Made by a program: the position numbers and the translations under genes. A stretch of DNA of 63,510 nucleotides, counting the filler, from Asterionella formosa (taxonomy: Eukaryota): assembly GCA_002256025.1 (NCBI GenBank). It is 29 parts of 29 records of this genome, joined end to end, with 100 filler letters (N's around TTAATTAATTAA, not from the genome) between each part and the next. Parts side by side here need not be neighbours in the genome. Positions count along the whole stretch, not along the records: positions 15,395 to 17,489 come from NKIB01000438.1; 28 more parts are not named here. One strand, written 5' to 3'. Under the pieces are notes generated by a model. That model searched no databases, was not told the origin of the DNA, and worked only from the letters and a program-made list of their open reading frames with translations. Positions 2,102 through 63,510 of the stretch are shown in pieces. The number at the start of each line of letters is the position of its first letter. The first letter of the stretch is position 1.

Positions 2102-2201
2102 NNNNNNNNNNNNNNNNNNNNNNNNNNNNNNNNNNNNNNNNNNNNTTAATTAATTAANNNNNNNNNNNNNNNNNNNNNNNNNNNNNNNNNNNNNNNNNNN
2201 N
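2102..2201. other. Artificial contig spacer (N-run containing TTAATTAATTAA); first of 28 such spacers
   Basis: The same 100-nt N/TTAATTAATTAA/N block recurs every ~2.2 kb and puts stops in all six frames; the flanking contigs are unrelated and roughly length-sorted. Confidence 0.98.
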
Positions 2202-3120
2202 TCAGCGAGGCATCCCTTCGCGCAACGCTAAAGTCCCTCGGTATTGAACCTACGGGCAAGATTCAGTCGTGTGAAGGCTGCGCACTAGCTAAGGCAAAGG
2301 CCAAAGCGGTACCTAAAGTCACGACCCTAAAGACAACTACTCCTACTAAACCTTCCAACGCAATGCCTCCTGACGAACAAGGGGCTGATACGACACTACC
2401 AACGAAACCGGACGATCCAAGTACTCCCAAGGGAGTGAGCTTTGCAGATTCCGTCGCAGTTGGTATGATTACGAACGAGCATCGTACGAATTATGCTACG
2501 AAATCTACAAAGCTAGATCGAGAAATGAATAGGCTATCAACAGGCCTTGTGACCTCGCCTACACCTACTCGTGCAGGTACACATCAGCAATCATCCGCAG
2601 CACGCACGCTTATTTTGGATGACGACACGAATGAAAACCTCCAAGAGCACGAACCTAACGAGGAAGCACATTCAACAAGCCTAGCTTCCGACCCACTGGA
2701 ACCCAAGAGCTACAAGCAGGCACTACTAAGTAACGAAAAAGACGAATGGACCAAGGCAATCAAAGCTGAAATTGAAAACTTCTACTCCCGCAAAGTGTGG
2801 AAGCTACATCCTCGTAAGAATCTAAAGGGACGAAAGCCACTTGGAGCAAAATGGGTATTTAAAAAGAAGAATGAGCACGACAACACTACGCGCTACAAGG
2901 GCCACATCGTGGTAAAAGGCTACGTGCAGATACCAGGTGTCGACTTCACAGACTCATTTGCACCTGTTGTTACGGATACAGGCCTACGTATTGTGTTTGC
3001 GCTCACCCTACACGAGAAATGAATAGGCTATCAACAGGCCTTGTGACCTCGCCTACACCTACTCGTGCAGGTACACGTCAGCAATCATCCGCCGACACGA
3101 ATGAAAACCTCGAAGAGCAC
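2202..3120 (+). mobile_element. Rearranged Copia pol fragment (pre-integrase Zn region, linker, start of RT)
   Basis: CEGCALAKAK, EPKSYKQAL, KWVFKKK, VVKGYVQIPGVDFTDSFAPV; integrase core is missing; RT breaks at ~3020 into a copy of 2519-2650. Confidence 0.9.
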
Positions 3121-3527
3121 GTTGAAATAGTCCGTACTCCTTCCCGCGGGTTGGGTCTCTCTTCACGTAGACTCTTACGTGATCGTAGTACTACCTAGTA
3201 CCACTTACTTTCTCTCTTGTCTCTGCTTCTACTAGCCTTCCTGCTAGATAGACTAATTGACCTTACTGTCAATTAACACACTGTTTCCTCGGTTGATAAT
3301 CTAAATCTCAAATTAAATTATAAGCTAAACTAAATGTTTCCTTTCCATGCATCTTTGCTTCTGCAAAGTCATTCTAAGACTCTCTTCGAGTTTCCACTTA
3401 ACATTTCCTCAGAAATCTTCAATCTCTGATCTCGTTAGACAGCTGATTGACGTGGCAATGCAATATTCGACTCGTTCGATTACAATCGAGTCCACAATCC
3501 TTGTGACTCGGGCTAATATTCTTGACA
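3121..3527 (-). repeat. 3' LTR of minus-strand Copia
   Basis: On minus: PPT GGGGAGGA, then TGTCAAGAATAT...GGAAGGAGTACGGACTATTTCAAC; similar to LTRs at 16952 and 19093. Confidence 0.85.
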
Positions 3528-4301
3528 TCCTCCCCATTGCCACGCTCAAGAGGCTGTAACATCGTTCCACTCTGAACTGGTTCGGACAATCTCGTATGAA
3601 CCTGTTCCTTCACGTTCTTGGTCATAATGTCCGCAAAATTATCTTCCGACCTTATAAAAATGACTTCCAATTCTTCATCCTCAATCATGTCCTTTACATG
3701 ATGATACTTAATATCAATATGTTTTGTCCTGGTTCCGATTTGCTGATTCTTCGCGATAAAAATAGCTCCTGTATTGTCTTCTCGTAGGATACTTGGTAAC
3801 ATGACCTTACCACCAGTAACCTCATTCAGTAGCATTGCTATAAACTTGATCTCATGTCCAAACTGGGACATCGCCACATACTCGGCTTCCGTGCTGGACA
3901 GCGTAACCGTTTGTTGTCCCTTCGACTGCCAACTGATAAGTGCCCCGCCAATAGTAACAAGATAGCCAGTCGTGCTCTTCCTGTTAACCTTATTAGCAGC
4001 CCAGTCACTGTCCACGTAGGCAATGACTCTTAACTCTTTTGGCTTACGCAACTTGAGAACTCTATCCTCCATATTGGATAGGTAACCAATGACTCTTGCC
4101 ACTGCATGCCATTGTTCTTCACCTGGGCAACTTAAATGAGCCGATAGTTCCCGAACCGCATTCGCACAGTCCGGCGAATCCTTCTTTGTAGACCATAGTA
4201 ACTTGCCCACAATTTTTCGATATTCTCCTTCCATAATGACTTCACCGTCATTCTTGTTCAATGTCTTTCCTGGTACACCCGGCGTTGCGTACGACTTAAT
4301 T
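3419..4301 (-). mobile_element. Copia RT C-terminus and RNase H
   Basis: YRKIVGKLLW, AYVDSDWA, RKSTTGY, SWQSKGQQTVTLSSTEAEY, EDNTGAI, RTKHIDIKYH, ADIMTK. Confidence 0.95.
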
Positions 4302-4439
4302 NNNNNNNNNNNNNNNNNNNNNNNNNNNNNNNNNNNNNNNNNNNNTTAATTAATTAANNNNNNNNNNNNNNNNNNNNNNNNNNNNNNNNNNNNNNNNNNN
4401 NTCTCAAATAGAATAGACATATGTTAATATACTTAGCAT

Positions 4440-5160: not shown

Positions 5161-5589
5161 TCATTAGTACTACTACTAGTGGTATCGTTACTATGACATG
5201 AATGCGGTGCATCGGGAGCAATGAGTGTCAATCCCCTACTTTGTAACTTTTTTCTCAGATTGTCCATTCGATTCAACAATAATTGACTCGTTTGACGATT
5301 GCCATGAAGGACAAGAATTCATTGTCTTTGTTTCATGTTGGATGCAGCAGCACCAACAGTATCATTGTTTGGTTTCAAAGATTGCATACTACTACCACCG
5401 GTGGTAGTACTATGGTTGATGTTGTTGTTTCTGGACCCGCTCACATCATTTTCTTTCATACTTAAAACTATAAGCGACAACAGTGATGGGATAGAAATTT
5501 CTTCGCCATTTTCTTTAGATGGCTGACACATCCCTTGCGCTATATAGGGTTAGGGATATACAAATAGTACTGATCATTACATGTGGCTG

Positions 5590-10829: not shown

Positions 10830-11123
10830 GGCCGAAATCTAAAAGCGATGACGATCGAATTATTGAGGAGGTTGATTGATATGTAACGATATGCATATGT
10901 NNNNNNNNNNNNNNNNNNNNNNNNNNNNNNNNNNNNNNNNNNNNTTAATTAATTAANNNNNNNNNNNNNNNNNNNNNNNNNNNNNNNNNNNNNNNNNNNN
11001 GTACCTGGTATTGTCCCTAATGATGGTGTACCGGATTGGTGAAGTTTCTACATGCGATTTTTATGATCAAAAACTTGCTTCCAACAGGAGACCCACCCAT
11101 AGTCAGTATTACATGTATACTGG

Positions 11124-12675: not shown

Positions 12676-12984
12676 TACCTGGTACCAGGTACCAGGTACC
12701 ACAACTTGCAGCTAACAGGGTTCAGTACCTTTCACTGGTACCTGGTACCGGCGACCACGCACGTACGATCCTACCAGGGCGTACCGGAAGGGCAGTCTAG
12801 TGGTTTTCTGTGGTGCGCGAACAAAACCATAGCTCGTCCTTCGGCAGTCATACCAACATCTGCCTAATCACGTGCTGTCTGTGGGTCAATCTACTTCCAT
12901 CATTCACCAGCACATCTCCTCGTAGTTTTGCTGCTTAAGAATTCGAAACAACACACATCTTTGCAAAAAGTCAGCAGATTCACC

Positions 12985-15394: not shown

Positions 15395-16372
15395 GATCTG
15401 GCGAGAAACTGCAGAAAGGAACTTCGGTTTTTTAACTATGCTGAAAATAGTGGATTTTACCGGGCTAACTCGTTTATTTGGCCTAGTAAAAAAACCGAAG
15501 TTCCTTTCTGCAGTTTCTCGCCGAAAGTTAACTTCTGGGGCTATATGAAGATTACCTATGTACTTAACTCTTCTTCAAACCCTGCCAACGTTGAGCTATC
15601 GTCGTCCAAAAATTCGACAATATCGGCCTTTTCAACGGTCACCCAAACGTCGGAATCAGAATCACTAATCGCCGAAACGTCATCATCGGAATGGTAGTCT
15701 TGTGCTAAAATTTGTAGTCGTAAAATCTCGTGTACAAAAAGTTCCAATGTAATTGCCCGCTGTAATAATCATATACTGATTGGTTATCCTTACATCCGTT
15801 CGATTGGCACGGTTTGCGAGGTCGTGCAATCCCACGCCGGCCACACTGGATACACATGAAGCATTTTCTTGGGTGTTGGCCGATCCTACCCGTATACCGG
15901 TATCCGTACGGAGTGGGAATATCGAGTACCGGGTAGGTTTACCCGTATACCGGAATCCGTACGGAGTAGGAATACCGAGTACCGGGTAGACCTACCGGTT
16001 CCAGGTAACTGATCATCATTCGTCATAGTAAATGGTAGTGCACGCTAACCAGTACCTTAGTACCGATAGTTTGCACATTCAAATATATATTGCAGCCGCC
16101 GGGTCGTGCATGTGAAACATAATTATGATACGAGTAGGTATACTTTCGGTAGAGTAGCAATATAAAACTTTCAGCGATGAAGAATCTATCTTTACATATT
16201 TTATGCATTTGAAATGGAATCTATATACGTGCGCAAATTTCCACTCATTTGAATTTTTCAAACGGAATCATTGATATTCAAATTAGCACATAAAAGTTCT
16301 TAGTTCCAGGGAATTTCGGCAACCCTAAGCAATTTTTTAATTTTTGCCTAGGGGTTCAAATGCAGGAACCTT
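15395..16372 (+). repeat. Interspersed repeat family B with long internal inverted repeat (15400-15522) and hairpin terminus
   Basis: Homologous to 28587-29520 and 62987-63510 (minus); terminus alone at 45355-45411. Confidence 0.85.
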
Positions 16373-16951
16373 AACAATGTACACTGTGCAACAATACAAG
16401 TACGGAAATATTTACTCGCTATAAAAATCTGACCAACTCGTTCGTCACAATAAATAGCGTATCTTGTATACTAAGTTCAAACCGTGCGTTTACTCCATTT
16501 GCGGTGGCTTACAGTTTTTAAGTGATAGCTAAATAGGATGTGACCAGCAGAAAGAATGCGAACAATTCCCCCTAATACACGCCCGAGGTGGTCTCTTCTT
16601 GCCTGCGAGTACACATGTATACGAGAAGGCAAGTAGCCGCCGAGAAGGGTTCTGTTGAGGCAATTCCTGCTCTATCTATCGTCGTGTCATTCGCTTACCT
16701 ACTGCCCACCAATAAAGTGTGTTACGCCCATATATATACCGGTAGGTATCCCAATGATGGGCATGATTAAAATAAAATTATTCGTGTACATACGTTAACA
16801 TACAAAAATATCTGTGCAACATATTGGTACTACGAACGTACCCGAAAAATAATCAACTCTCAGCGCAACCTTTTATGGCCATACATATAGTCGTAGCTGT
16901 GTGCTGCACTGGTAGTTAACTAGCACCTTCGACAAAGCTCGCGATGTACGT

Positions 16952-17330
16952 TGTCAAGAATATAGCATCAGTGGCTATAATGAGTCACAAGGACTGTGGA
17001 CTCGACTAAAGTCCAATGAGTCAAATGGTGCGTTCCCATGTCAAGAAGCTTGCTAACGAGATTGATGTCTTTGATCAATCAGAAGAAGGTTTACATCAAC
17101 GAAAAGGGAACACGAAGAACAGGTTCTCGAAGTGTGATGAATGGGATTGAAACTTAGTTTTAGTTTAATCTTATAATTAAGAAACAGTGAGAATTGACAG
17201 AGTAAGGTCAATAGCGAAAACTAGCACGAAGGCTAGCAGCAGAAAGAAGATAACAATACTAGTGGTATAGCAGGTAAGTTCTACGTAAGAGGAACCCGTC
17301 AGACGGGAAGGAGTACGAGACCTTTCAACA
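16952..17330 (+). repeat. 5' LTR of a Copia element
   Basis: TGTCAAGAA...TTTCAACA; boundaries supported by copies at 3121-3527 and 19093-19485; gag follows. Confidence 0.9.
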
Positions 17331-17374
17331 CGCTTTAAAGCGTCCACTTTAAGGCCACAGGCTACTCAGGAACG

Positions 17375-17489
17375 ATGGGAAGTGATGAAGACACGTCAGT
17401 GAGGTTGCCGACATTCGATGGGCAAGATGCTAAATGGCACATGTGGAAAGCGAAGTTTCTCGCATACGCGTGCTACAAGAACTTTCAAG
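17375..17489 (+). mobile_element. Copia gag N-terminus (partial)
   Basis: MGSDEDTSVRLPTFDGQDAKWHMWKAKFLAYA matches the Copia gag F.G..W..W pattern. Confidence 0.85.
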
Positions 17490-19092: not shown

Positions 19093-19485
19093 TAGCATCA
19101 ATGGCTATAATGATTAGTTGCAAGGTCTGTGGACTTGACTATAGTCCAATGAGTCAAATGGTGCGTTCCCGTCTCAAGAAGCTTCTTGCTAACGAGATTT
19201 GATGCTTTAGATCAATCAGCAGAAGAAGGTTTATATCAGAGAAAAGGGAACACAAACAACAGTTTCTCAAAGTGCGATAAATGGGATTGAAACTAGTTTT
19301 AGTTGAAGCTTATAATTAAGAAACAGTGAGAATTGACAGAGAAAGGTCAATAGCGAAAACTAGCACGAAGGCTAGCAGCAAACTATAACAGTATTAGTAC
19401 AGGTACCGGTAGTACAACAAGTAAGACCTACGTAAAAGGATACATACCCGTCAGACGGGAAGGAGGAGTACGTGACCTTTTAACA
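19093..19485 (+). repeat. Degenerate LTR copy (probably solo) of the 16952 family
   Basis: Collinear with ~16963-17330; no gag downstream; 5' end replaced by GGTAC-type motifs. Confidence 0.85.
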
Positions 19486-19785
19486 ACCTGGTACCAGGTA
19501 CCAGGTACACGACAATACACTTACATACATACACCATATTTCGTCTCTGCATCTACATATGATCTATCAAAATGATTTTCGGCCCTCATTATAACAAGCA
19601 AGCAATGCGCTTAGCAATGACATCATAAATTCATTCTCTTTCGATTGTTAAGGATCAGGAGTTGAATGGCTGTTTCTTTCAGGAGNNNNNNNNNNNNNNN
19701 NNNNNNNNNNNNNNNNNNNNNNNNNNNNNTTAATTAATTAANNNNNNNNNNNNNNNNNNNNNNNNNNNNNNNNNNNNNNNNNNNN

Positions 19786-21881
19786 GATATTGAATATTGT
19801 CTGTCAAGATGGGATGATTAAGGAAACATGTAAGCAGAGGTTCATCATCTAATTCAATTGAAAAAGTAGAAGTGGAAGTTGATGTTGGAGATTTCGGTCC
19901 AATATCAATATCATCCTCCACCAAAGACTCAAGCCTCGGGAGGCGAGAGATGGAATCTGCAATAGCATTGTCAGTCCCTTTCACATAATGAAAAGTAGGA
20001 TGGTATTCTTCAATGTAAAGTCGCCATCGTAGAACACGTTGTGTATGTAATGTATTATAAATAAGATTTCGATGATCAGTGTGAACATGTAGAACTGCGC
20101 CCAATAACATAGAGCGAAATTCTTTGAAAGTTTCTACCACAGAAAGTAATTCTTTTTCAATAGTAGTATAATTCTTTTGAGCAGCAGATAATTTGCGAGA
20201 ATAATAAGCAACTGGGAGATCATTTTGCATAATGACCGACCCTAATTGATAATCAGAGGCATCAGTAAAGATATGAAAAGGGAGATTATGGTCAGGATAA
20301 CGCATGAGTGTATCTGCAACTAACAATGCTTTCATTTCTTCAAAAGCTTGTTGATGGATAGGTAACCAGACAAAGGGACTAGTTCCAATTAAATCCGTAA
20401 GTGGTCCAAGAACATGCGATCGTCTAGGAAACATGTCTCGATAGTAAGTAACAGCACCGAGAAATGATCGAACTTGTTTAAGATTGGTAGGTGAAGACAT
20501 ATTAATCAATGCTCGGACTTTTTTAGACCAAGGTTTCAGTCCATTAGGAGTTAACCAATAGCCTAACCAATCTGTCTCTTGGACGGCCCATTCACACTTA
20601 GATGGATTAATTGTAAAACCATTTATCTGTAAACGATGTAAAATAGTGTCCAATAAATGAAGGTGATCTGAAAAATTCATTGAAAAACAACCCACATCAT
20701 CAATATAAATTTCCACATCATCTAAATCACTAAGGATCTGTTCCATAGTTTCTTGTGCAATGTCAGATGATTGTTTCACCCCCATAGGCAGGCGTAAATA
20801 TTTATATAAACCAAATGGAGTTGAAATAACACACAAGTTTTGACTCTCCACATCCAATGCAAAAGTATAGTATTGCATGGAAACATCCAATTTGGTGAAA
20901 AATACATATCCAGCACGTTTAGTGAGAATAGTTTGTATTCGAGGCAAAGGATATATATTGCGATTGATGACTTTATTAAGTTCACGAAAATCTGATACCC
21001 ATCGGACACTTCCATCCTTTTTTGGAATAATAAAAGTGGGAGATGCCCATTTAGAAGCACCACATTTTTGTAGGACTCCAATATCACATAATCGTTGTAA
21101 TTCAGTTTTGAAAACTTCTAAATGAATATGAGCGACCGGATATGCTCGTTGATGACGAGGGACAGCATTTGATAATAATTCCAAATGTACCTGTTTGTGA
21201 GGATAGACTTTTAATTTGCCATCAAATAATGTTTGATATTTAACCAATATAGATCGTAAACATGATCGTTGTATTGTTGTCAAATGTATTTGTTTATCCA
21301 CCACTGTATCAATATTTATATAATTATATTCAGCAGCTTTAATTTCCAGCGCATATGAAGATTCCACAATCATAGGTGCATCGAAATATAATAATACATC
21401 TTGTAAACGTTCTCTATCATCAAAGAATGTGAGCGGATGCATAGGAACGATCATATCCATACAGGACATGGTGTTATTTACGAAATCAATGGTTAAACCA
21501 ACTTGACGGAGCATAACCCGTTCATGTATTAAGGATAATGATCCTCCACTATCGAATAATACTCGTAGTATTTTATGTATCGGTATATTATCCACCAATT
21601 TTGGCGCTAAAAGGGACATCGGAATCAAATCAATTGATGTTAATATATCCTTAGAAGTAAAACAAGAAACCGGAATTGGTCCCTGATATGTATGTGGAAC
21701 ATCATGTCCATCAATACAGTTATATATATCCCGCGTTACATTAACAGCGGTATTCATAGTGTATTCAACCTGTAAATAAACAATATTATTCAGGTGATGA
21801 CTAACGTGAGATATACTCAACGAGTCATTATAAATAGCATCGCTATTATCGCACATACCTCTGTAATGGCGATCAGCAATC
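19786..21881 (-). mobile_element. Ty3/Gypsy pol (protease with deletion, RT, RNase H)
   Basis: LFDSGGS, WASPTFIIPKKDGSVRWVSDFRELNK, RLPMG, YIDD, FTDASDYQLG, YTTIEKELLS, HTDHRNL, ADSISRL. Confidence 0.95.
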
Positions 21882-22043
21882 NNNNNNNNNNNNNNNNNNN
21901 NNNNNNNNNNNNNNNNNNNNNNNNNTTAATTAATTAANNNNNNNNNNNNNNNNNNNNNNNNNNNNNNNNNNNNNNNNNNNNCGATGGTATCAAACCATCT
22001 GAATACGGTATGATGGTACCTGGTACATGGTCCCTACCAGGTA

Positions 22044-24176: not shown

Positions 24177-26271
24177 TAGCTGAATGGGTACGATATGTCT
24201 GCCAGAGTAAGACAAGTTTCTGACCAAAATCTCATGTCCACACCAAGTGCACACTTCGTCGACATGAGTATACAATGTTGGCAGTTTACGTGTGAGAGTG
24301 CTCGTCCTCACCATATCAGAAATCAATTTTGAGTCCTTATCGTTGCAGTCGTCTTCCGAATCGTTGTATGCGTCGTTTGAATAGATAAATACTTCTTTTG
24401 AATCTAGCGATTCTTCCGAGTCGTCGTATGTTTCTTAGGCGCAGCATGAAAAGCGTAATGTCACAGAGGAATAAAAAGGGGAAGCAAAATAGGAATTTGA
24501 CTGGGAACGGGGACCTGTTGTTATGAAAACTGTTTGACACTTTTATTTTTATGTACCTGTTGTAAGTTCAAAAAAGTATGTTCTTCCAACGAATCCCTCC
24601 TGCTGATTTTGAATTTGGTGTTGGGTCTGGTTTATTTTGCTCAGACATGTTGTTCTCCGTTCATAAAGGACCCAATTGTGAACATTGCTTTTATGAATAT
24701 ATACCGGTAATGATAAACATACATTGATTTTTATTATATCAGAGTATCATTTTTGATGGAGTCGGCTGGGCGATGCTGGTACGAGGACGAACTGATATGT
24801 ACTGGTACCAGTTTCTTTACTTCACGATTCGGCTCGATCCTCACAAGAATCAAATTCCGTGCTGGTACATATGGGTTCCCTGATGAGGAAGGCGGACCGA
24901 TCATACCAGCTTACTACCGGTAAGTATGTCCCGGTAGGTACCTGTGAAAGTTGCGGTCATTTTGCTTAATTAAATAGACAATTTCATTTAGGATAAAGGA
25001 AGATAAATCTTTTGTTCAGGAAAATTGCCGCAACATGCAGGTACCAGGTAACCCTGGTGTAATGCATACCCGGTATTCCGCTGGGCGAACACAATTGCGG
25101 GTACCTGGTACTGTTTATAATGCGGTAGGATTAATGGTACCTGGTACCTGGTACCAGACACCGGTACATAGCTTTGTACCCTTGTTCTAAAGCTACACAG
25201 GTATACCTGACTGTCTGGTACCCAGAAAGAACTCAAAATTTTAAGGGTTCATTCCCGTAACAGTAATTGCAGTCGTGACGTGACGGAATATCAGCTGAAA
25301 TGAGTACTTTGTACCAGTAGTACCAGGTAGTATGTATTGTTATGTCGACATAGGCATTCAGTCAATCCATGTCCGTACGAACACAGTGTACTTTTGATAC
25401 AAACGGAATTGTAAGACAGCTGCTGGAGTGTACCTGGTACCGAAATACGGGTTTGTAACTACCGCAAGTCCTATAGGTACCTGGTACCTGGTACCAGCAG
25501 GACCGGTACCGGTATCTGGTACCGTAGATGAAATTCATTTATTGGGCGGAACGAAATTCTATCGTCCTCGGACTCCTTCGACTTCAGTACATACATGCTC
25601 GATTGTTTGCTGTTCGCTCTTCGAAGGGCTTCTACCTTACATACCCACCGTAGGAAATCTACGGGGAGACTAATTTTCTACACTTCGATCTTCGTCGCCG
25701 CTGCATCATTGCTTGCTTGTCGTTTCTCAACGTTCAGAAGTTGGACAGGCTGCACGATACTCGTCATTTCGTTCATTTTAAATTTTAAGCATCCATTCAA
25801 TACCATTACCATGAACCCTGAATAGTGAGTCCAACCATGGCGTGCATGAACACTGGTGTTGTCCCGCTGAGGGAGAAAGAGAATCGGTGAAAGACAGGAA
25901 CCCATGGAAGCTGTGAGAACGAGAATTCGCAGGCAGTCTCGTTGCGAATTATTTAGCAGTCATTCGCAAGCAATCAACTTGCTCCAGGGTGGTTCCAGGC
26001 CATGGCGAAGTGGCCTGGACAAGTGGCCTGCGATTCTATTCGTTAGGAATTAGCCCTGGCAAAGCAAAGATAAGGACGCTCTTTCCCCCGATAGCCCTGC
26101 AATGACAAGGACGTGTGTATGTCTTGGAACGAGGGGTCGTAAGATGCAATCATGAGGCATGCAAAGATTTCTGGTTTGCACGTTTCTAACATTGTTTTTC
26201 TCCTTTTCTTGTTCCTTCTCCCCAAAACAGCGATTACCTCTTCAAGCTTCTGCTTATCGGAGACTCTGGTG
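24177..26271. repeat. Whole-contig near-duplicate of 41706-43798 (probable allelic haplotig)
   Basis: Identical first and last bases, collinear throughout with scattered SNPs and indels. Confidence 0.9.
24941..25041. mobile_element. 101-bp CCTG...CAGG MITE, TA-flanked
   Basis: TA|CCTGTGAAAGTTGCGGTCATTTTG...GAAAATTGCCGCAACATGCAGG|TA; same family as 12582. Confidence 0.75.
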
Positions 26272-29520: not shown

Positions 29521-29846
29521 GCGAATTAAATTCTTCCTTAATCAAAATATACAAGGAGTACTGTCACATGCACACGTATTAGACATGTCTTTGTTCCAAA
29601 GTACTACCTGGTACCAGGTACTCTGGTACGGTAGACTACGTGGTACTGTTGAGTTGCAGATCATTTTTACCAGACGCTTCGAAATTTACGTATGTAGGTC
29701 AGATATGAACAGGCTACATACAATATATATATTCGACACACGAGTGTACCGGTACTACAGGACGGAATCCAGAATCCGTTGGTCTGGCCATACTTGATGT
29801 CGAAATCAACAGAAAGACATCATAAATCATATTTATTTTATTTTAT

Positions 29847-39428: not shown

Positions 39429-40318
39429 NNNNNNNNNNNNNNNNNNNNNNNNNNNNNNNNNNNNNNNNNNNNTTAATTAATTAANNNNNNNNNNNNNNNN
39501 NNNNNNNNNNNNNNNNNNNNNNNNNNNNTCGCTGTTCAAAGTCTTCGGCAGGAGAAGATGGAGGAGATCCATCGTCCATGTCTTCTTCATTCGTCTCGGC
39601 AGGCGACAAAGCCCGATGATCCATCATGTTGTTAGAGTGTTGCTGTTGGCTGCGATACTCTGTCGGAGTATTTCGTAAGGACAACGCGATGATATTGTTA
39701 TCAAAAAAATCTGTTTGTTTTCGTACGGATGCTGATATTCGAATCAAAGGATGTTTGTTTAGGAGCCAAGTCTATGATGGAACAAAATCAAGACTTTATG
39801 AAAATACGGAAGATGGCGGAAATGGCGGAAAGGAGGATTTAGCACTTGTTGTTCGTTCCTCAATTCGGCGAGAATGACAAGGAAATGCATCCAGCTACCG
39901 GGGAGTTCCGTGTAAGTCCGAATATGGCGAATATTTGTCCGTAAATATTTTATCAAACCAGCCATACGTGAGCAAACCTTAAAAATGGCTTACCGTTATG
40001 TTCATTATGTAGCAGTACGGCGTAGTTGTACCGGTAGGTAACTTTTGTTCAAATTGTGTACATACCATCATACTGGGTACCAGGTGAGCAATCCTGCACA
40101 TCGATACAGATGTATTTAGGGTTAGGGTTATATCAAATATATCGGAATTGTATAATGAGAGAACTCGACTAACACCCATTCTATACTTTGATGTCAGTTC
40201 AGGAAATGAGTTGTACATAAGGATTAATTAATAAACTCATATATTCAACAAATACTACTACTTCTAGTTAGATACTTCACTTTGAATTCAAAAAGAGTCG
40301 AATTAGAAGACAACAAAC

Positions 40319-41605
40319 ATGGCAATGTATTCAAGGGTTCCTGTGATTCCTTTGATCAAAGACTACAATGTATTGACTATCAAAACTAAAACGTTCAGAG
40401 TTGCTTTAACCGGTGGAAGGTTTGAATCGTTTGATCAAGATATGATCGATGGAAGCTCAGTGGAAGCATTGTTAATTGGAGTGAGTCAATTTCGTGACAT
40501 GGCTAACACATGTGACTTTAGCCCTGCAGATACCTTTTCCTATTTTAAAAGGTGTTTGACAGACATTGCCTTATCGGATTGGTTGAATGTGGAAGTACAC
40601 CCAGAAGATCAATCTTACGATGGCTTTATGGTTAGACAATCGTTTACCAAATGAGAGTTTTCAACATCAACGACAATGGATGCTACGTTATTTATCTAAA
40701 CCCTTTTCCATCTTGGTAATGGATTACGGAGCTCGTATTAAAACTCTAAACAGGCTACTTCAACTAATGCCTCATCCAGAAGATCAAGTTGGATTGTCAA
40801 AAGAAGATATACGGATTATCATTATCCGTTCTATGCCCGATGAGTGGCAACAAGAGTTTGAATTAAATCATGCAAAGACTTCAGACCAATCGATTCGCTC
40901 GGTTCTCGCTTACTTCGAGAGTCAACAATCGTTTAAGGACCGAAACAAGCATCTTCCCAAGAACAGTTTTCAAACAATCGCACAGAACCGTCTTCGCATT
41001 GCTGAAGGCAATCGTGTGATGCGTCAAGAAAACGAGCGTGTCAGTCGTCAATTCTACAAGGATAATTTTACTCCAACCCTTGCTATTGTCAATGCAGCCG
41101 GACGCGCATGGGATCGTCAGGCAACTGTTCGTCATCAAGCTCTACAAGCCAGTCGTACGTACCATGATTATCGTGGTCCTTGCCCGGTACATCCTGAAGG
41201 TGTACATACTTGGGGCAATTGTTTCCAGAATCCTCGTACTCAAGGTGGTCGAGCAGGTCGTATGACTGGTCGTCATATTAATGGACGTGGCCGTTCCAGT
41301 TTTGGTAGACGAGGACATTTTGGTGGTCGTGGAGGCGGTGCACACAGCAATCCTACGGAAAGCTATCATACTGACACTGCTAACCCTGTGCCTGTTCCAC
41401 ATGCTCGTATGTTAAATGCATGGGGTCATAATACTCGTCCATCCGGTTGGGGTACCGTGCCACGTGCCGATCCTACCGAGAATACATCTGCCCAGGAAAT
41501 TTCAGTGGTCACGAACCCTCCTGCTGGCCAGATAGTGACTTTTGTCCCTACTATACAACAGCAGATTGCTGATCGCCATTACAGAGGTATGTGCGATAAT
41601 AGCGA
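40319..41605 (+). mobile_element. Gypsy gag with a frameshift near 40625; continues into pol at 21881-19786
   Basis: FKRCL, Q..WM..L.KP, RIKTLNRLL..MP, SMPDEWQ, CPVH....HTWGNC knuckle variant; last 42 nt overlap the start of the pol contig. Confidence 0.85.
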
Positions 41606-41705
41606 NNNNNNNNNNNNNNNNNNNNNNNNNNNNNNNNNNNNNNNNNNNNTTAATTAATTAANNNNNNNNNNNNNNNNNNNNNNNNNNNNNNNNNNNNNNN
41701 NNNNN

Positions 41706-46283: not shown

Positions 46284-46635
46284 TGTTGAAAAAATTCGAG
46301 CTGACTGCCACAGGACAGGCGTGAAGGGTATAGTAGACACGAGAGAGTACAGTACTACAGTTAAAACCGTACAGCCGCTACCAAGAGTTACCTGGGCTGA
46401 CGTGGTAAAAGGCACCACGCAAGGAAAAGCAATCAGAGGTCAAGAAAAAATGTTAAAATGCAGTGTGAGTAATAAGAGTGTTTCGAGACCATTATCTCGA
46501 AACAATCCAGTTAGTAAAGTGAAAGTTTAAGTTTGACAACTTCTTCGTTGCTATCAATTTCATCAACTGTATTCGATTAACACAGTACTAGGTTCAAGGC
46601 CTACGATACGGTCGAATACGGTAGTTGTTACAACA
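46284..46635 (+). repeat. 5' LTR of CoDi-like Copia
   Basis: TGTTGAAAAA...TTACAACA; 3' boundary fixed by alignment with the 3' LTR at 38956-38649. Confidence 0.85.
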
Positions 46636-46649
46636 TTGTTTCGAGATAA
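46636..46649 (+). promoter_or_regulatory. Non-tRNA primer-binding site complementary to LTR 46492-46505
   Basis: TTGTTTCGAGATAA abuts the LTR end and is the exact reverse complement of TTATCTCGAAACAA. Confidence 0.75.
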
Positions 46650-49001: not shown

Positions 49002-49422
49002 TGTTAAAGTGAGCTCATCTACGTAGTTAGGACTCGGAGTCAAACGAGTCAAACGATTCGAATGAGTCCACTTTGATGTACCAAGCTCTCATCAACCACA
49101 CATTATACTTTGCTACTCCGACTATAATGAGCCGGACAACATAAGCTATTTCGGAAGACCGATAGTTTGAAATGAATGATCATGGTTAAATACCTATGAT
49201 CAGTAAGTGTGAGATAGACATGGGTCTATCTATGATTGTATGTTCCTAGAAATGCAAACAGCATTTGGAGAATAGTTCGTTTGTTTTGTTCAAACAGAAC
49301 AACCTAAACTAGATTAGTAAACTCACAATAAGAATATAGAAACGGAAAGAGAAACGAACGTCTCTATCTATAGTCTTCTTTGTCTAACGATATAGATCTA
49401 TACAAAAAGTAATACTTTAACA
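49002..49422 (+). repeat. 5' LTR of a Copia element
   Basis: TGTTAAAGT...ACTTTAACA terminal inverted repeat; end confirmed by the copy at 11124. Confidence 0.9.
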
Positions 49423-49454
49423 CGTTTATAAACGGACTTAAGTGTTTAAACAGC

Positions 49455-50376
49455 ATGTCTACAGAAATGTCTGAAGAGAGCATGAGGCTCATCAAGTTTG
49501 ATGGCAACGAAACGACCTGGTACCAGTGGAGCGTTAAAACGCTCGCTCTGGCGAAGGCAAGAGGATTCCGAACGATGTAATCCAAGAACCACAACCCGTG
49601 TTCTGACGAAGAGTACGAAGTGGAAACAGACAAAGGAGTCAGGGCTATCTACGAGGCCAACGACAAGGCGTACCAGTTGCTCATCATGAGCTGCACCGGA
49701 ATCGCCTTCGGACTCGTAAACCAAGCCAAAACGAAAACGTTGATCGATGGCGATGCATACATGGCGTGGAAGAACCTCGAAGCGAGGTATGCCCCCCATT
49801 CTGTGTCGGACCTGATCCAGCTGGCAAGCGATTTCAACAAATGCAAGCTGAACGATAGCTCCTCTGATCCAGACGAATGGTTCATTGAGCTCGATCTAAT
49901 ACAAAGCAAGATGATGGCGATCGACCCGTCATTCGAGAAGAAAGAAATGGAAGTGATTGCGAACGTAATCGACAAGCTTCCAGTGGAGTACAGCGAGGTT
50001 GTTACAGTCGTCGAGGGCATGACAACAATCAGCCTCAACGAATTGAAAGGAAAGATCCGAGCATTCTACAAACGAAAGCTAAAGGGCACGAAGAGCACAA
50101 AGGAGATCGCCCTATTCACGCAGAAATACAGAGGTATCTGCAAGAACTGCGGAAAACAAGGGCACAAGGCCGACGTGTGCCGATCAAAAACGAACACAAG
50201 CGGAACGAATGCAAACGGTACGAACGAAAAAAATGAGATAAAGTGCTATAATTGCAATAAATATGTCGGGCATATTGCAAGAGACTGCCCGGAACCAAAA
50301 CGCGCACCACGCGGCGAGAAGAAAAAAGAAACCGGAATGTACGTGGGAATGTGCGAGGAGATTACTGGTATGGAGG
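49455..50376 (+). mobile_element. Copia gag with a premature TAA at 49578
   Basis: IKFDGNETTWYQW, DAYMAWKNLEARY, DPDEWF, KLPVEY, two CCHC knuckles. Confidence 0.92.
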
Positions 50377-52568: not shown

Positions 52569-53228
52569 NNNNNNNNNNNNNNNNNNNNNNNNNNNNNNNN
52601 NNNNNNNNNNNNTTAATTAATTAANNNNNNNNNNNNNNNNNNNNNNNNNNNNNNNNNNNNNNNNNNNNAATTTTTTCGCCCAGAGGGAGTGCGTTCGACC
52701 CTGTAAAACCATGGAGACAATGATATTTTTAGAGCTCTACATACAATAAAAGTATGAACATATTTTTTGGTCTAATTTACTACTTACGGTATATAATATC
52801 CCGACATGTGATGGTGTGTGCGTATAAGTACCGGAATAGTACCTGGTACCAGGGGTACCAGGTACTAGGTGCCGGTAGTATGATGTCTGAGTGTGTCTGT
52901 TAGGCTGTTGATGTCGACAGGTGTCCGAAGCTAGATGTAGTCTGAGGAATGTATAACGGAAATACCGGTAGACAGGATTGCTTTATATTCATGACCCTAT
53001 ATGTAGCAGAATAGTATGCAGACGAGCGTCGTGAGAAAGATCTTGACCGCCACATATTTCAACAGCATGATAGCCTTGCATTCAAAACGATTCGACCGCA
53101 AACTACCTCACACCGTTTCATGAATACAATAGCAAACATTATCGAATGCCAGCAATAAAGGTTACGATATCAAAACTATAGCTAAAGTTACATGCAGTCC
53201 ATACTCCATACGATAACCGTGAAAATGA

Positions 53229-61319: not shown

Positions 61320-61599
61320 NNNNNNNNNNNNNNNNNNNNNNNNNNNNNNNNNNNNNNNNNNNNTTAATTAATTAANNNNNNNNNNNNNNNNNNNNNNNNN
61401 NNNNNNNNNNNNNNNNNNNGCAATCTATTTTCTTCAGCAGCAGTTTGTGCTGAAAGTCGAATGAATAGCTCAAGAGAGGAATTGTGGACTAGACTATCAG
61501 AAGTTGCTGATACACTGCTGTGTGATTTGGGTGGGCTATCTTTCCATCTTTGTAAAGAATGAGTCTCAAACCAGGTTTTCTTAACCATAGAAAATATCC

Positions 61600-62986: not shown

Positions 62987-63510
62987 AAGGTTGCTGCATT
63001 TGAACCCCTAGGCAAAAATTAAAATATTGCTTAGGGTTGCGAAAATTCCCTGGAATTAAGAATTTAATTAGCTATTTTTGAATGACGTGATTCCATTTGA
63101 AATATTTGAATCAGTGGAAATTTGCGAATACGTACATAGATTCCTTGTCAAAATCGCTAAATATATATATTGACACTCTCAGTCGCTGTATGTATATATA
63201 TGCTAAAAATACGATCAACAAGTATGCATGGACACTCTATACTCCGATTAACGATTTTATATGCTATGCATTGAATCCGTTCGACATATTCAAATCGTTT
63301 AATATACACATATATAAATAAATATATATATTTAGGTTCTACATCGCTTCATGTGCATACACAAGTACTACAATGTATACTCGTATCGACGAATATGGGT
63401 CATGTATACGACCCGGCGGCTCGGCAAATATTTGAAAGTGCACCCAAGGAGCGGTACGCGTACCGGTATGTCCAATGATGATCATCTACTGGTACCCGTC
63501 GTGAATATAG
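62987..63510 (-). repeat. Repeat family B, copy 3, including terminus
   Basis: Matches 29090-29520 and the 16300-16372 terminus. Confidence 0.88.

Follow-up and report, generated by a model that had tools for sequence, protein, structure and literature searches.

How does a long terminal repeat (LTR) retrotransposon begin reverse transcription when the position behind its 5′ LTR holds a palindrome in place of a binding site for a transfer RNA (tRNA)? To our knowledge, reverse transcription of LTR elements is thought to be primed almost always by a host tRNA, with Tf1-type self-priming as the one proven exception. The question is raised by element A, a Copia element in the Asterionella formosa assembly GCA_002256025.1. 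It occupies the 3′ end of the contig at positions 15395–17489 of the stretch analyzed here (the window), which comprises 63,510 bases in all: 29 separate contigs, each about 2.1 kb long, with linkers of the form N44-TTAATTAATTAA-N44 between them; the window is not one locus, and features on different window contigs are not physically linked. Directly behind U5 of element A stands a perfect 12-nt palindrome, and palindromes or near-palindromes of differing sequence occupy the same position in its relatives, with pairing kept through matched changes. With a probability put at about even, 17331–17342 is where minus-strand synthesis is primed in a Ty1/copia lineage that no longer uses tRNA, a site that would combine the functions of dimer contact and primer. 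The host of this lineage is probably a diatom.

Structure of Element A and the Edges of Its LTR

Many window contigs carry pieces of retrotransposons. The features on which the description of element A depends are the following.

16952–17330, plus strand: 5′ LTR of Copia element A, 379 nt, TGTCAAG...TTTCAACA, with TG..CA ends, delimited by alignment with LTR copy B and the C-type LTR
17331–17342, plus strand: perfect 12-nt palindrome CGCTTTAAAGCG at +1 after U5, proposed tRNA-independent primer site
17375–17489, plus strand: start of gag, with ATG at 17375 and 38 codons open to the contig end at 17489
19093–19485, plus strand: LTR copy B, which lies on the following contig, is 5′-truncated and has 82.7% identity over 398 nt; followed by ACCTGGTACCAGGT, no gag
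2102–2201, 4302–4401, ... 61320–61419: linkers, whose TTAATTAATTAA is scored 28 times as a palindrome of 12 nt

Both edges of the LTR were located by comparison with copy B and with contigs of four sequencing runs, which were matched to 16900–17489 at 80% likeness. At the inner edge, homology with copy B ends after ...TTTTAACA at 19485, and 20 contigs of run X1 part just behind 17330, where the LTR terminates in ...CCTTTCAACA (AACA); in its longer context the junction reads ...GACCTTTCAACA, then CGCTTTAAAGCG, then TCCACTTTAAGGCCACAGGCTACTCAGGAACG, then ATG. At the outer edge, 32 contigs of run X1 part just before 16952 and show a purine-rich, polypurine tract-like ...GAGGAGGA there, which by its sequence is as expected of 3′ LTR copies behind a polypurine tract. 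The C-type element in the window has the same LTR start, behind ...GGGGAGGA and an open reading frame (ORF) of pol.

The gag start of element A matches copia gag N-termini (45% over 31 aa against P0001, E 2e-8), and P0001 carries PF14223. The TG...CA LTR, the leader and the copia-type gag mark element A as a Ty1/copia LTR retrotransposon. As to the diagnostic order of integrase before reverse transcriptase (RT), element A is truncated by the contig end at 17489, the order is seen in the relative L006 (gag, Pol_BBD, rve, RVT_2), and the pol of the C-type element contains RVT_2.

A sequence-only reading of this stretch had placed the LTR end at 17330 with the palindrome directly behind it, an extension of the palindrome to 14 bp, and gag at 17375, and these coordinates and letters agree with those given here. 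It had also relied on the copy at 19485. That copy does support the LTR edge, but it lies on another contig, is 5′-truncated and is followed by a different palindrome, ACCTGGTACCAGGT, in a repeat, and is otherwise ambiguous. Copy B was considered as a second example of a palindrome behind an LTR and was dropped, since ACCTGGTACCAGGT sits in a (CCAGGTA)n-like repeat that extends on both flanks.

A Palindrome at the First Position behind U5

The palindrome of element A extends to 14 nt, ACGCTTTAAAGCGT (17330–17343), when A17330 and T17343 are added. Reverse-transcription logic places the 3′ end of the primer at the inner edge of U5, and the palindrome starts there; it is thus at the priming position. 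An ordinary tRNA site, or an internal tRNA-fragment site of the half-tRNA kind used by Drosophila copia or Ty5, would be the conventional occupant. Priming from internal fragments is common among Copia elements, and the sites of Drosophila copia and yeast Ty5 are fixed complements of the initiator tRNA that do without the TGG that matches a tRNA 3′ end. Element A resembles these elements in being of Copia type without TGG (none in 17331–17374, as the sequence-only reading had reported), and differs from them in that its site is a covarying palindrome. A tRNA arm carries either a 7-nt loop or a D-loop whose unpaired bases are fixed, so that a perfect even-length 12-nt palindrome would misfit any canonical tRNA arm, and the site covaries among relatives (below) rather than staying fixed to one tRNA sequence. 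Half-tRNA priming served as the opening guess and was dropped after the survey of relatives; priming by a tRNA or a tRNA fragment is now regarded as very unlikely. Neither in the window nor in the 17 metagenome loci described below did ARAGORN predict a tRNA, a result of little weight for some 120 kb, and a search of 16900–17489 against Rfam gave only a chance-level snoRNA match (E 0.93).

Self-priming of the Tf1 type requires a complement of the site elsewhere in the LTR. Within the LTR (16952–17330), the longest complement of 17331–17375 is 7 nt with G·U pairs counted, which bears out the earlier remark that no long complement was to be seen there. The site is therefore not of the Tf1 type.

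Palindromes as such are common in the window. At a length of at least 12 nt, 73 were observed, including the 28 linker copies and several AT- or GGTACC-type repeats, vs. a mean of 16.5 per 63.5 kb in shuffles of the window, or about 3 in 10,000 positions. A palindrome exactly at +1 of the LTR is unlikely to have arisen by chance, but this one was picked after the fact, so that its recurrence in relatives is the real test.

The predicted homodimer of the site of element A (−16.6 kcal/mol) is far more stable than its predicted hairpin (−2.5 kcal/mol). Homodimers of −10 to −21 kcal/mol are predicted in seven of eight variants of the site, the mismatched one of L015 reaching −5.0 kcal/mol, and the corresponding 4-bp hairpins lie between 0 and −2.5 kcal/mol. 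According to these folding models, the leader palindrome of element A could form an intermolecular duplex. In such a self-duplex +12 stands opposite +1, as the sequence-only reading had it.

The element A stretch is present in 20 runs, labeled as algae and freshwater metagenomes, 6 of which are RNA libraries; this presence fits expression of the stretch, although DNA carry-over may also account for it. One contig from an RNA run (X15) spans exactly 16952–17342 and was considered as a strong-stop product. It was rejected: contigs cannot show RNA ends, and this one most likely ends at a branch of the assembly graph between A-type and C-type sequences. No strand-changing joint at the palindrome is listed among the contigs, and because contigs drop rare molecules this is evidence neither way.

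Relatives with a Palindrome at the Same Position

The window contains a second Copia element, D, which is distant from A and has the palindrome CGTTTATAAACG at the corresponding place; at the N-terminus its gag is clearly homologous to that of A, though far diverged. A family related to that of A, here called C-type, is represented by a 3′ LTR.

49423–49434, plus strand: palindrome CGTTTATAAACG of element D, directly behind the LTR end ...CTTTAACA at 49422; gag ATG at 49455
3120–3527, minus strand: 3′ LTR of a C-type element, behind the pol ORF 3419–4345 (minus strand) and the tract ...GGGGAGGA; followed by unrelated DNA, no palindrome

The junction of element D (49058–49457) reads ...AATACTTTAACA, then CGTTTATAAACG, then GACTTAAGTGTTTAAACAGC, then ATG. 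Other D-type LTR copies end near 11112 and 37956 on the minus strand at the same ...TTTAA(C/A)A, and the flanks behind them are non-palindromic and unrelated. The presence of two different palindromes, those of A and D, in one assembly argues against a single host primer, which would fix one sequence. Two further features of element D are a palindrome, TGTTTAAACA, just before its gag ATG, and a gag frame broken by a stop at about 49579.

The C-type LTR is 69–79% identical to that of A, and the C-type RT is 42% identical to the RT of the L006 lineage. Three C-type contigs, one each in runs X3, X2 and X15, start with the end of the C-type LTR and match 17304–17342 without substitution; the 78 letters behind the 12-mer do not align with A, and homology resumes in gag at 17426. 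The A and C-type families have the 12-mer in common, but not the sequence behind it.

A wider survey started from the gag of D, which retrieved 28 gag homologs; nine of these were aligned with D, and the alignment was scanned against metagenome contigs, yielding 17 loci. The same alignment found no relative in the viral contig set or in the genome contig set. In 11 of the 17 loci the start of gag and the sequence upstream of it are present, and all 11 hold a 12-nt palindrome or near-palindrome at +1, directly behind ...TTTAACA or ...TTCAATA.

L003, L004 and L016: CGTTTATAAACG
L005, L006 and L007: CGTTTTAAAACG
L002: CGCTTGCAAGCG
L013: TGCTAATTAGCG, with a terminal U·G pair
L001: TGTTTATAAACT, outer pair broken
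L012: CGTTTATAAACA, outer pair broken
L015: CGTCTATAAACG, one inner mismatch

Some of these loci are distant (gag identity to the query is only 29–32% in L013, L015 and L016). When A and D are included, the spacing between the LTR edge and the palindrome is zero in 13 of 13 junctions, the edge being set by homology to the ...TTTAACA end in most loci; in A, D and L006 a second LTR copy bears it out. From the palindrome to the gag ATG the leaders measure 17–45 nt (11 junctions in which the ATG is seen), and no block common to them that could be a separate primer-binding site (PBS) was found. Given the position at the U5 edge and the lack of any other leader block, any primer must pair with the palindrome itself. 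Apart from this, a GATTACCAA(C/T)GC motif recurs 30–40 nt behind the palindrome in the leaders of L004, L012, L015 and L016, among gag lineages only about 30% identical, and may be a second conserved leader element.

Locus L006 contains a 1509-aa ORF with gag, a protease-like barrel (Pol_BBD), integrase and RVT_2 in copia order, and its LTR parts are 99% identical. It is intact, so that elements with such a site look capable of replication. Its 3′ LTR is followed by CATACTG..., with no palindrome; the absence of the palindrome behind 3′ or solo LTR copies places it outside the LTR, as internal sequence. In several of the metagenome contigs pol is followed by one LTR and then by gag, a pattern that repeats about every 4.9 kb (986–1285 and 5890–6189 in L002; 1–158 and 4907–5064 in L003; 2599–3121 in L005). 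These contigs could represent tandem elements with an LTR in common, circles with one LTR, or an assembly that passed through identical LTRs. The order pol, one LTR, gag is that of the contigs of the L005–L007 family in general.

Covariation within the Site

The sequence-only reading had proposed a survey of relatives for palindromes with compensatory changes. Such changes were found. It had also named relatives without palindromy at this position as a refutation, and on that point the survey came down on the side of the reading. The covariation alignment holds 11 of the 13 junctions, L006 and L007 being omitted as identical to L005 there, and was merged to 10 distinct rows; an older copy in L002, TACTTGCAAGCG, and a loose-end copy in run X3, CACTATAAAGCA, stand outside it. 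Five different palindromes, CGCTTTAAAGCG (element A), CGTTTATAAACG, CGTTTTAAAACG, CGCTTGCAAGCG and TGCTAATTAGCG, occupy the same +1 position. Across 10 distinct sequences and six pairs, 57 of 60 cells pair canonically. Three of the six pairs (7 cells) have changed on both sides: 3/10 is U-A or C-G, 5/8 is U-A or A-U, and the central pair is A-U, U-A or G-C. By contrast, neither +2 G nor +11 C varies, and 7 of the 10 distinct sequences retain the outer CG...CG.

The covariation score is 0.419, vs. 0.170 ± 0.048 in shuffles, none of which (0/500) scored as high, and when the partner is slid by 1–3 columns pairing falls to 27–47%. Kinship alone can beat such shuffles without any structure; the changes on both sides and the slide control agree with the score. 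Pairing kept through matched changes means that self-complementarity is under selection, and on the alignment the self-complementarity of the +1 site is accordingly taken as a selected trait.

These data bear on two explanations in which base pairing has no part. That the palindrome is a chance or inherited functionless sequence could draw on the abundance of palindromes in the window noted above, but 13 of 13 junctions are occupied, by five palindromes, and the score is beyond all 500 shuffles; this explanation is scarcely credible. A site of dyad symmetry, bound in DNA or RNA by a dimer of integrase, Gag or a host factor, is a more serious contender, in that symmetric changes of half-sites mimic covariation and the invariant +2 G/+11 C and the largely kept outer CG...CG would suit it. 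However, the central two letters, which dimeric proteins rarely read, are complementary in 10 of 10 sequences while varying among A-U, U-A and G-C, and a protein site leaves the exact registry with the U5 edge unexplained. A protein site is therefore considered improbable.

Pairing within One RNA or between Two

If the site is selected for pairing, its partner may lie in the same RNA. In fold-back priming of the kind suggested by the fungal conserved hairpin site (CHS), the site would pair with a downstream stretch, and a cut behind the 3′ arm would prime the same RNA. Element A has a candidate for that arm.

17347–17355, plus strand: downstream near-repeat CTTTAAGGC, which pairs with 17332–17340 in a 9-bp hairpin with the loop CGUCCA

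The predicted hairpin (−9.0 kcal/mol) has a z of −4.41 on 35 nt, none of 200 shuffles of the 35-nt stretch folding as well, and its two-arm layout is that of the published CHS (PMC5445492). Four points speak against it. The 3′ arm ends opposite 17332 (+2) and not 17331, so that synthesis would begin one base inside the site; z is only −0.74 in a 55-nt context; in a test for a duplex with a downstream complement, the shuffle fraction is 0.067 for A and 0.17–0.97 for nine other relatives, with 0 of 10 below 0.05; and the C-type family retains the 12-mer without the sequence that follows it in A. Fold-back priming is accordingly judged unlikely.

Alternatively, the palindrome may be a mere contact for dimerization or packaging, like the retroviral dimerization initiation site (DIS), PAL1/PAL2 of Ty1 or PBS-PAL of mouse mammary tumor virus (MMTV), with a host RNA priming at or over it. 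Palindromes in the 5′ leader dimerize the RNAs of retroviruses and Ty1, that of MMTV lies inside the PBS (PMC6844567), and the strong homodimer predicted for the site of A is in keeping with such a role. Against this, all 13 junctions have the start of the site precisely at the U5 edge, the 17–45 nt before gag hold no other conserved block, and for the five sequences, of which one assembly contains two, the host would have to supply five primers that are each palindromic. A dimer contact without a part in priming is the strongest of the alternatives and is still rather unlikely.

A Proposed Site for Dimerization and Priming

A combined dimer-and-primer site would work as follows. The site is self-complementary, so that no RNA other than a second copy of the site itself would have to anneal to it. 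Two genomic RNAs in one particle would pair via the palindrome in a 12-bp duplex, and one of them would be cut right behind +12, most plausibly by the RNase H of the element, as in Tf1. The 3′-OH of the cut RNA would then stand opposite +1 of its partner, and DNA synthesis would begin at the last base of U5. One site would in this way serve as both dimer contact and primer site. The dimer in the particles, the cut, the priming and the completion of second strand transfer are steps that we infer. That co-packaged RNAs prime each other through the palindrome, as a third mode of starting beside tRNA and Tf1 fold-back, in algal Copia elements and perhaps at the GalEa CHS of fungi, is a tentative proposal that appears somewhat less probable than its negation.

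Several points weigh against a combined dimer-and-primer site. Cutting both RNAs would remove the site needed for second strand transfer, and some asymmetry or a further step would be required. The cut, the primer and the dimer are deduced from the layout of the site, and a dyad-symmetric protein site would likewise change symmetrically. Palindromy is imperfect at the outer pair in L001 and L012, by an inner mismatch in L015 and by the terminal U·G in L013, and it is lost in the older tandem copy in L002 and in the loose-end copy in run X3. Most of these departures sit at the CpG ends and look like the decay of old copies, although this is an interpretation. Within family A, no variant with a share of at least 5% occurs in 17331–17342 (four runs; 17344 is T in most contigs of run X1), but this invariance is uninformative, as the rate in the flanks predicts only about 0.9 variable places in 12 nt. 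Finally, the base after ...AACA is also C in two of three non-5′ D-type LTR copies, and to judge from these copies the D-type LTR edge could lie one base further in.

Comparison with Known Systems

The closest known counterpart is found in fungi. Donnart et al. (2017) described GalEa Copia elements without a PBS that carry a "Conserved Hairpin Site" directly behind the 5′ LTR (PMC5445492). The fungal site is a 9-nt sequence, CTGATCAGT or CTAATTAGT, palindromic together with the last A of the LTR, and an inverse-complementary CHSeq2 follows 12–41 nt downstream with a fixed A/A mismatch (PMC5445492). The substitutions between its variants are symmetric, and in the parts of the paper concerned with the site no U5 complement was found and no mechanism is proposed; diatom CoDi-like clades, GalEa and Ty are placed there in one Copia branch (PMC5445492).

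The present sites resemble the CHS in that a palindrome stands directly behind the 5′ LTR, here in 13 of 13 junctions, and varies symmetrically. Moreover, the palindrome of element A includes the last A of its LTR, a downstream complement can form a hairpin with it, and the core of L013, CTAATTAG, is identical to one fungal CHSeq1 core (PMC5445492). They differ in that the site is 12 nt long (CG....CG), compared with 9 nt and the LTR's A in the fungi, and that this last A takes part in only 3 of the 10 distinct sequences (A, L015 and L016, with T at +13). A CHSeq2 as described for fungi was not encountered among these elements: only A has a notable downstream complement, 4 nt away, with a G·U pair and without the A/A mismatch. 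The host is an alga and not a member of the Pezizomycotina, and the likeness is judged by the site and not by clade in an RT tree. A tRNA-free palindromic site is thus not a first, the fungal GalEa having set the precedent in 2017 (PMC5445492). The claim of the sequence-only reading that this priming mode is distinct from the tRNA and Tf1 types is fair, in that the site replaces theirs by position, but as a claim to be the first it falls to the GalEa elements (PMC5445492).

In Tf1 and Tf2, which are Ty3/gypsy elements of fission yeast, the transcript's first 11 bases pair with the PBS, and an RNase H cut of the RNA duplex produces the primer (PMC7175516). By analogy, a tRNA-independent start, with RNA of the element itself annealing to the primer site, is the most likely working model for the present site, with the differences that the complement in the LTR is at most 7 nt, that the site pairs with itself, and that the superfamily is another one. 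The DIS, PAL1/PAL2 and PBS-PAL systems share with it a 5′-leader palindrome able to join two packaged RNAs (PMC6844567). They differ in having a separate tRNA PBS, or a palindrome that is a short part of the PBS, whereas the present leaders leave no room for one and the palindrome keeps exactly to the U5 edge.

The founding paper on diatom Copia elements contains no mention of a primer-binding site, tRNA, palindrome or hairpin, and "PBS" occurs in it only as a buffer (PMC2806351). No description of such a site in diatoms was found in the full-text collection searched, in which the CHS appeared only in the fungal paper and in a paper on bivalve terminal-repeat retrotransposons in miniature (TRIM) that cites it.

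Other Elements and Palindromes in the Window

A third Copia element in the window has the layout of Tf1-like self-priming, in that a 15-nt stretch directly behind its LTR end is the exact complement of a stretch within the LTR (46492–46506 and 46635–46649). At 2204–3527 there is a nested insertion in which the C-type 3′ LTR (minus strand) and the broken start of RT in another Copia element (ORF 2150–3022, plus strand) meet in antisense.

Two 12-nt palindromes, TTTGAATTCAAA and CTTTGATCAAAG, lie at 40281–40292 and 40350–40361, either upstream of a gypsy-type gag region or within its start. The gypsy-type ORF 40587–41657 continues into the pol found at 19730–21925, and the window has no second LTR copy by which the edge could be placed.

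Palindromes centered on GGTACC, such as TACCTGGTACCAGGTA, are found at 19486–19499, 12676–12691, 29605–29620, 52842–52853, 25502–25513 and 24801–24812. They lie in orientation-flipping (CCAGGTA)n-like repeats, one of them directly behind LTR copy B, and may belong to a satellite or another element family. A 20-nt perfect palindrome, TACTACCACCGGTGGTAGTA, is located at 5390–5409, and a 14-nt one, CGGTACGCGTACCG, at 63452–63465.

Implications for the Start of Reverse Transcription in Copia Elements

The feature at 17331–17342 is real and selected, and the place it takes in this Copia lineage is that of the primer; the mechanism put forward in the sequence-only reading is a plausible proposal. 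The fungal CHS has been unexplained since 2017, and a second, independent group of Copia lineages now shows clean covariation at the same position. This covariation indicates that self-pairing itself is selected, and the Tf1 scheme is ruled out for these elements. Intact and apparently expressed algal elements are thereby available as systems in which the question of mutual priming can be addressed. If two genomic RNAs do prime each other, dimerization and priming would be coupled in a way that has not been described for any retroelement.

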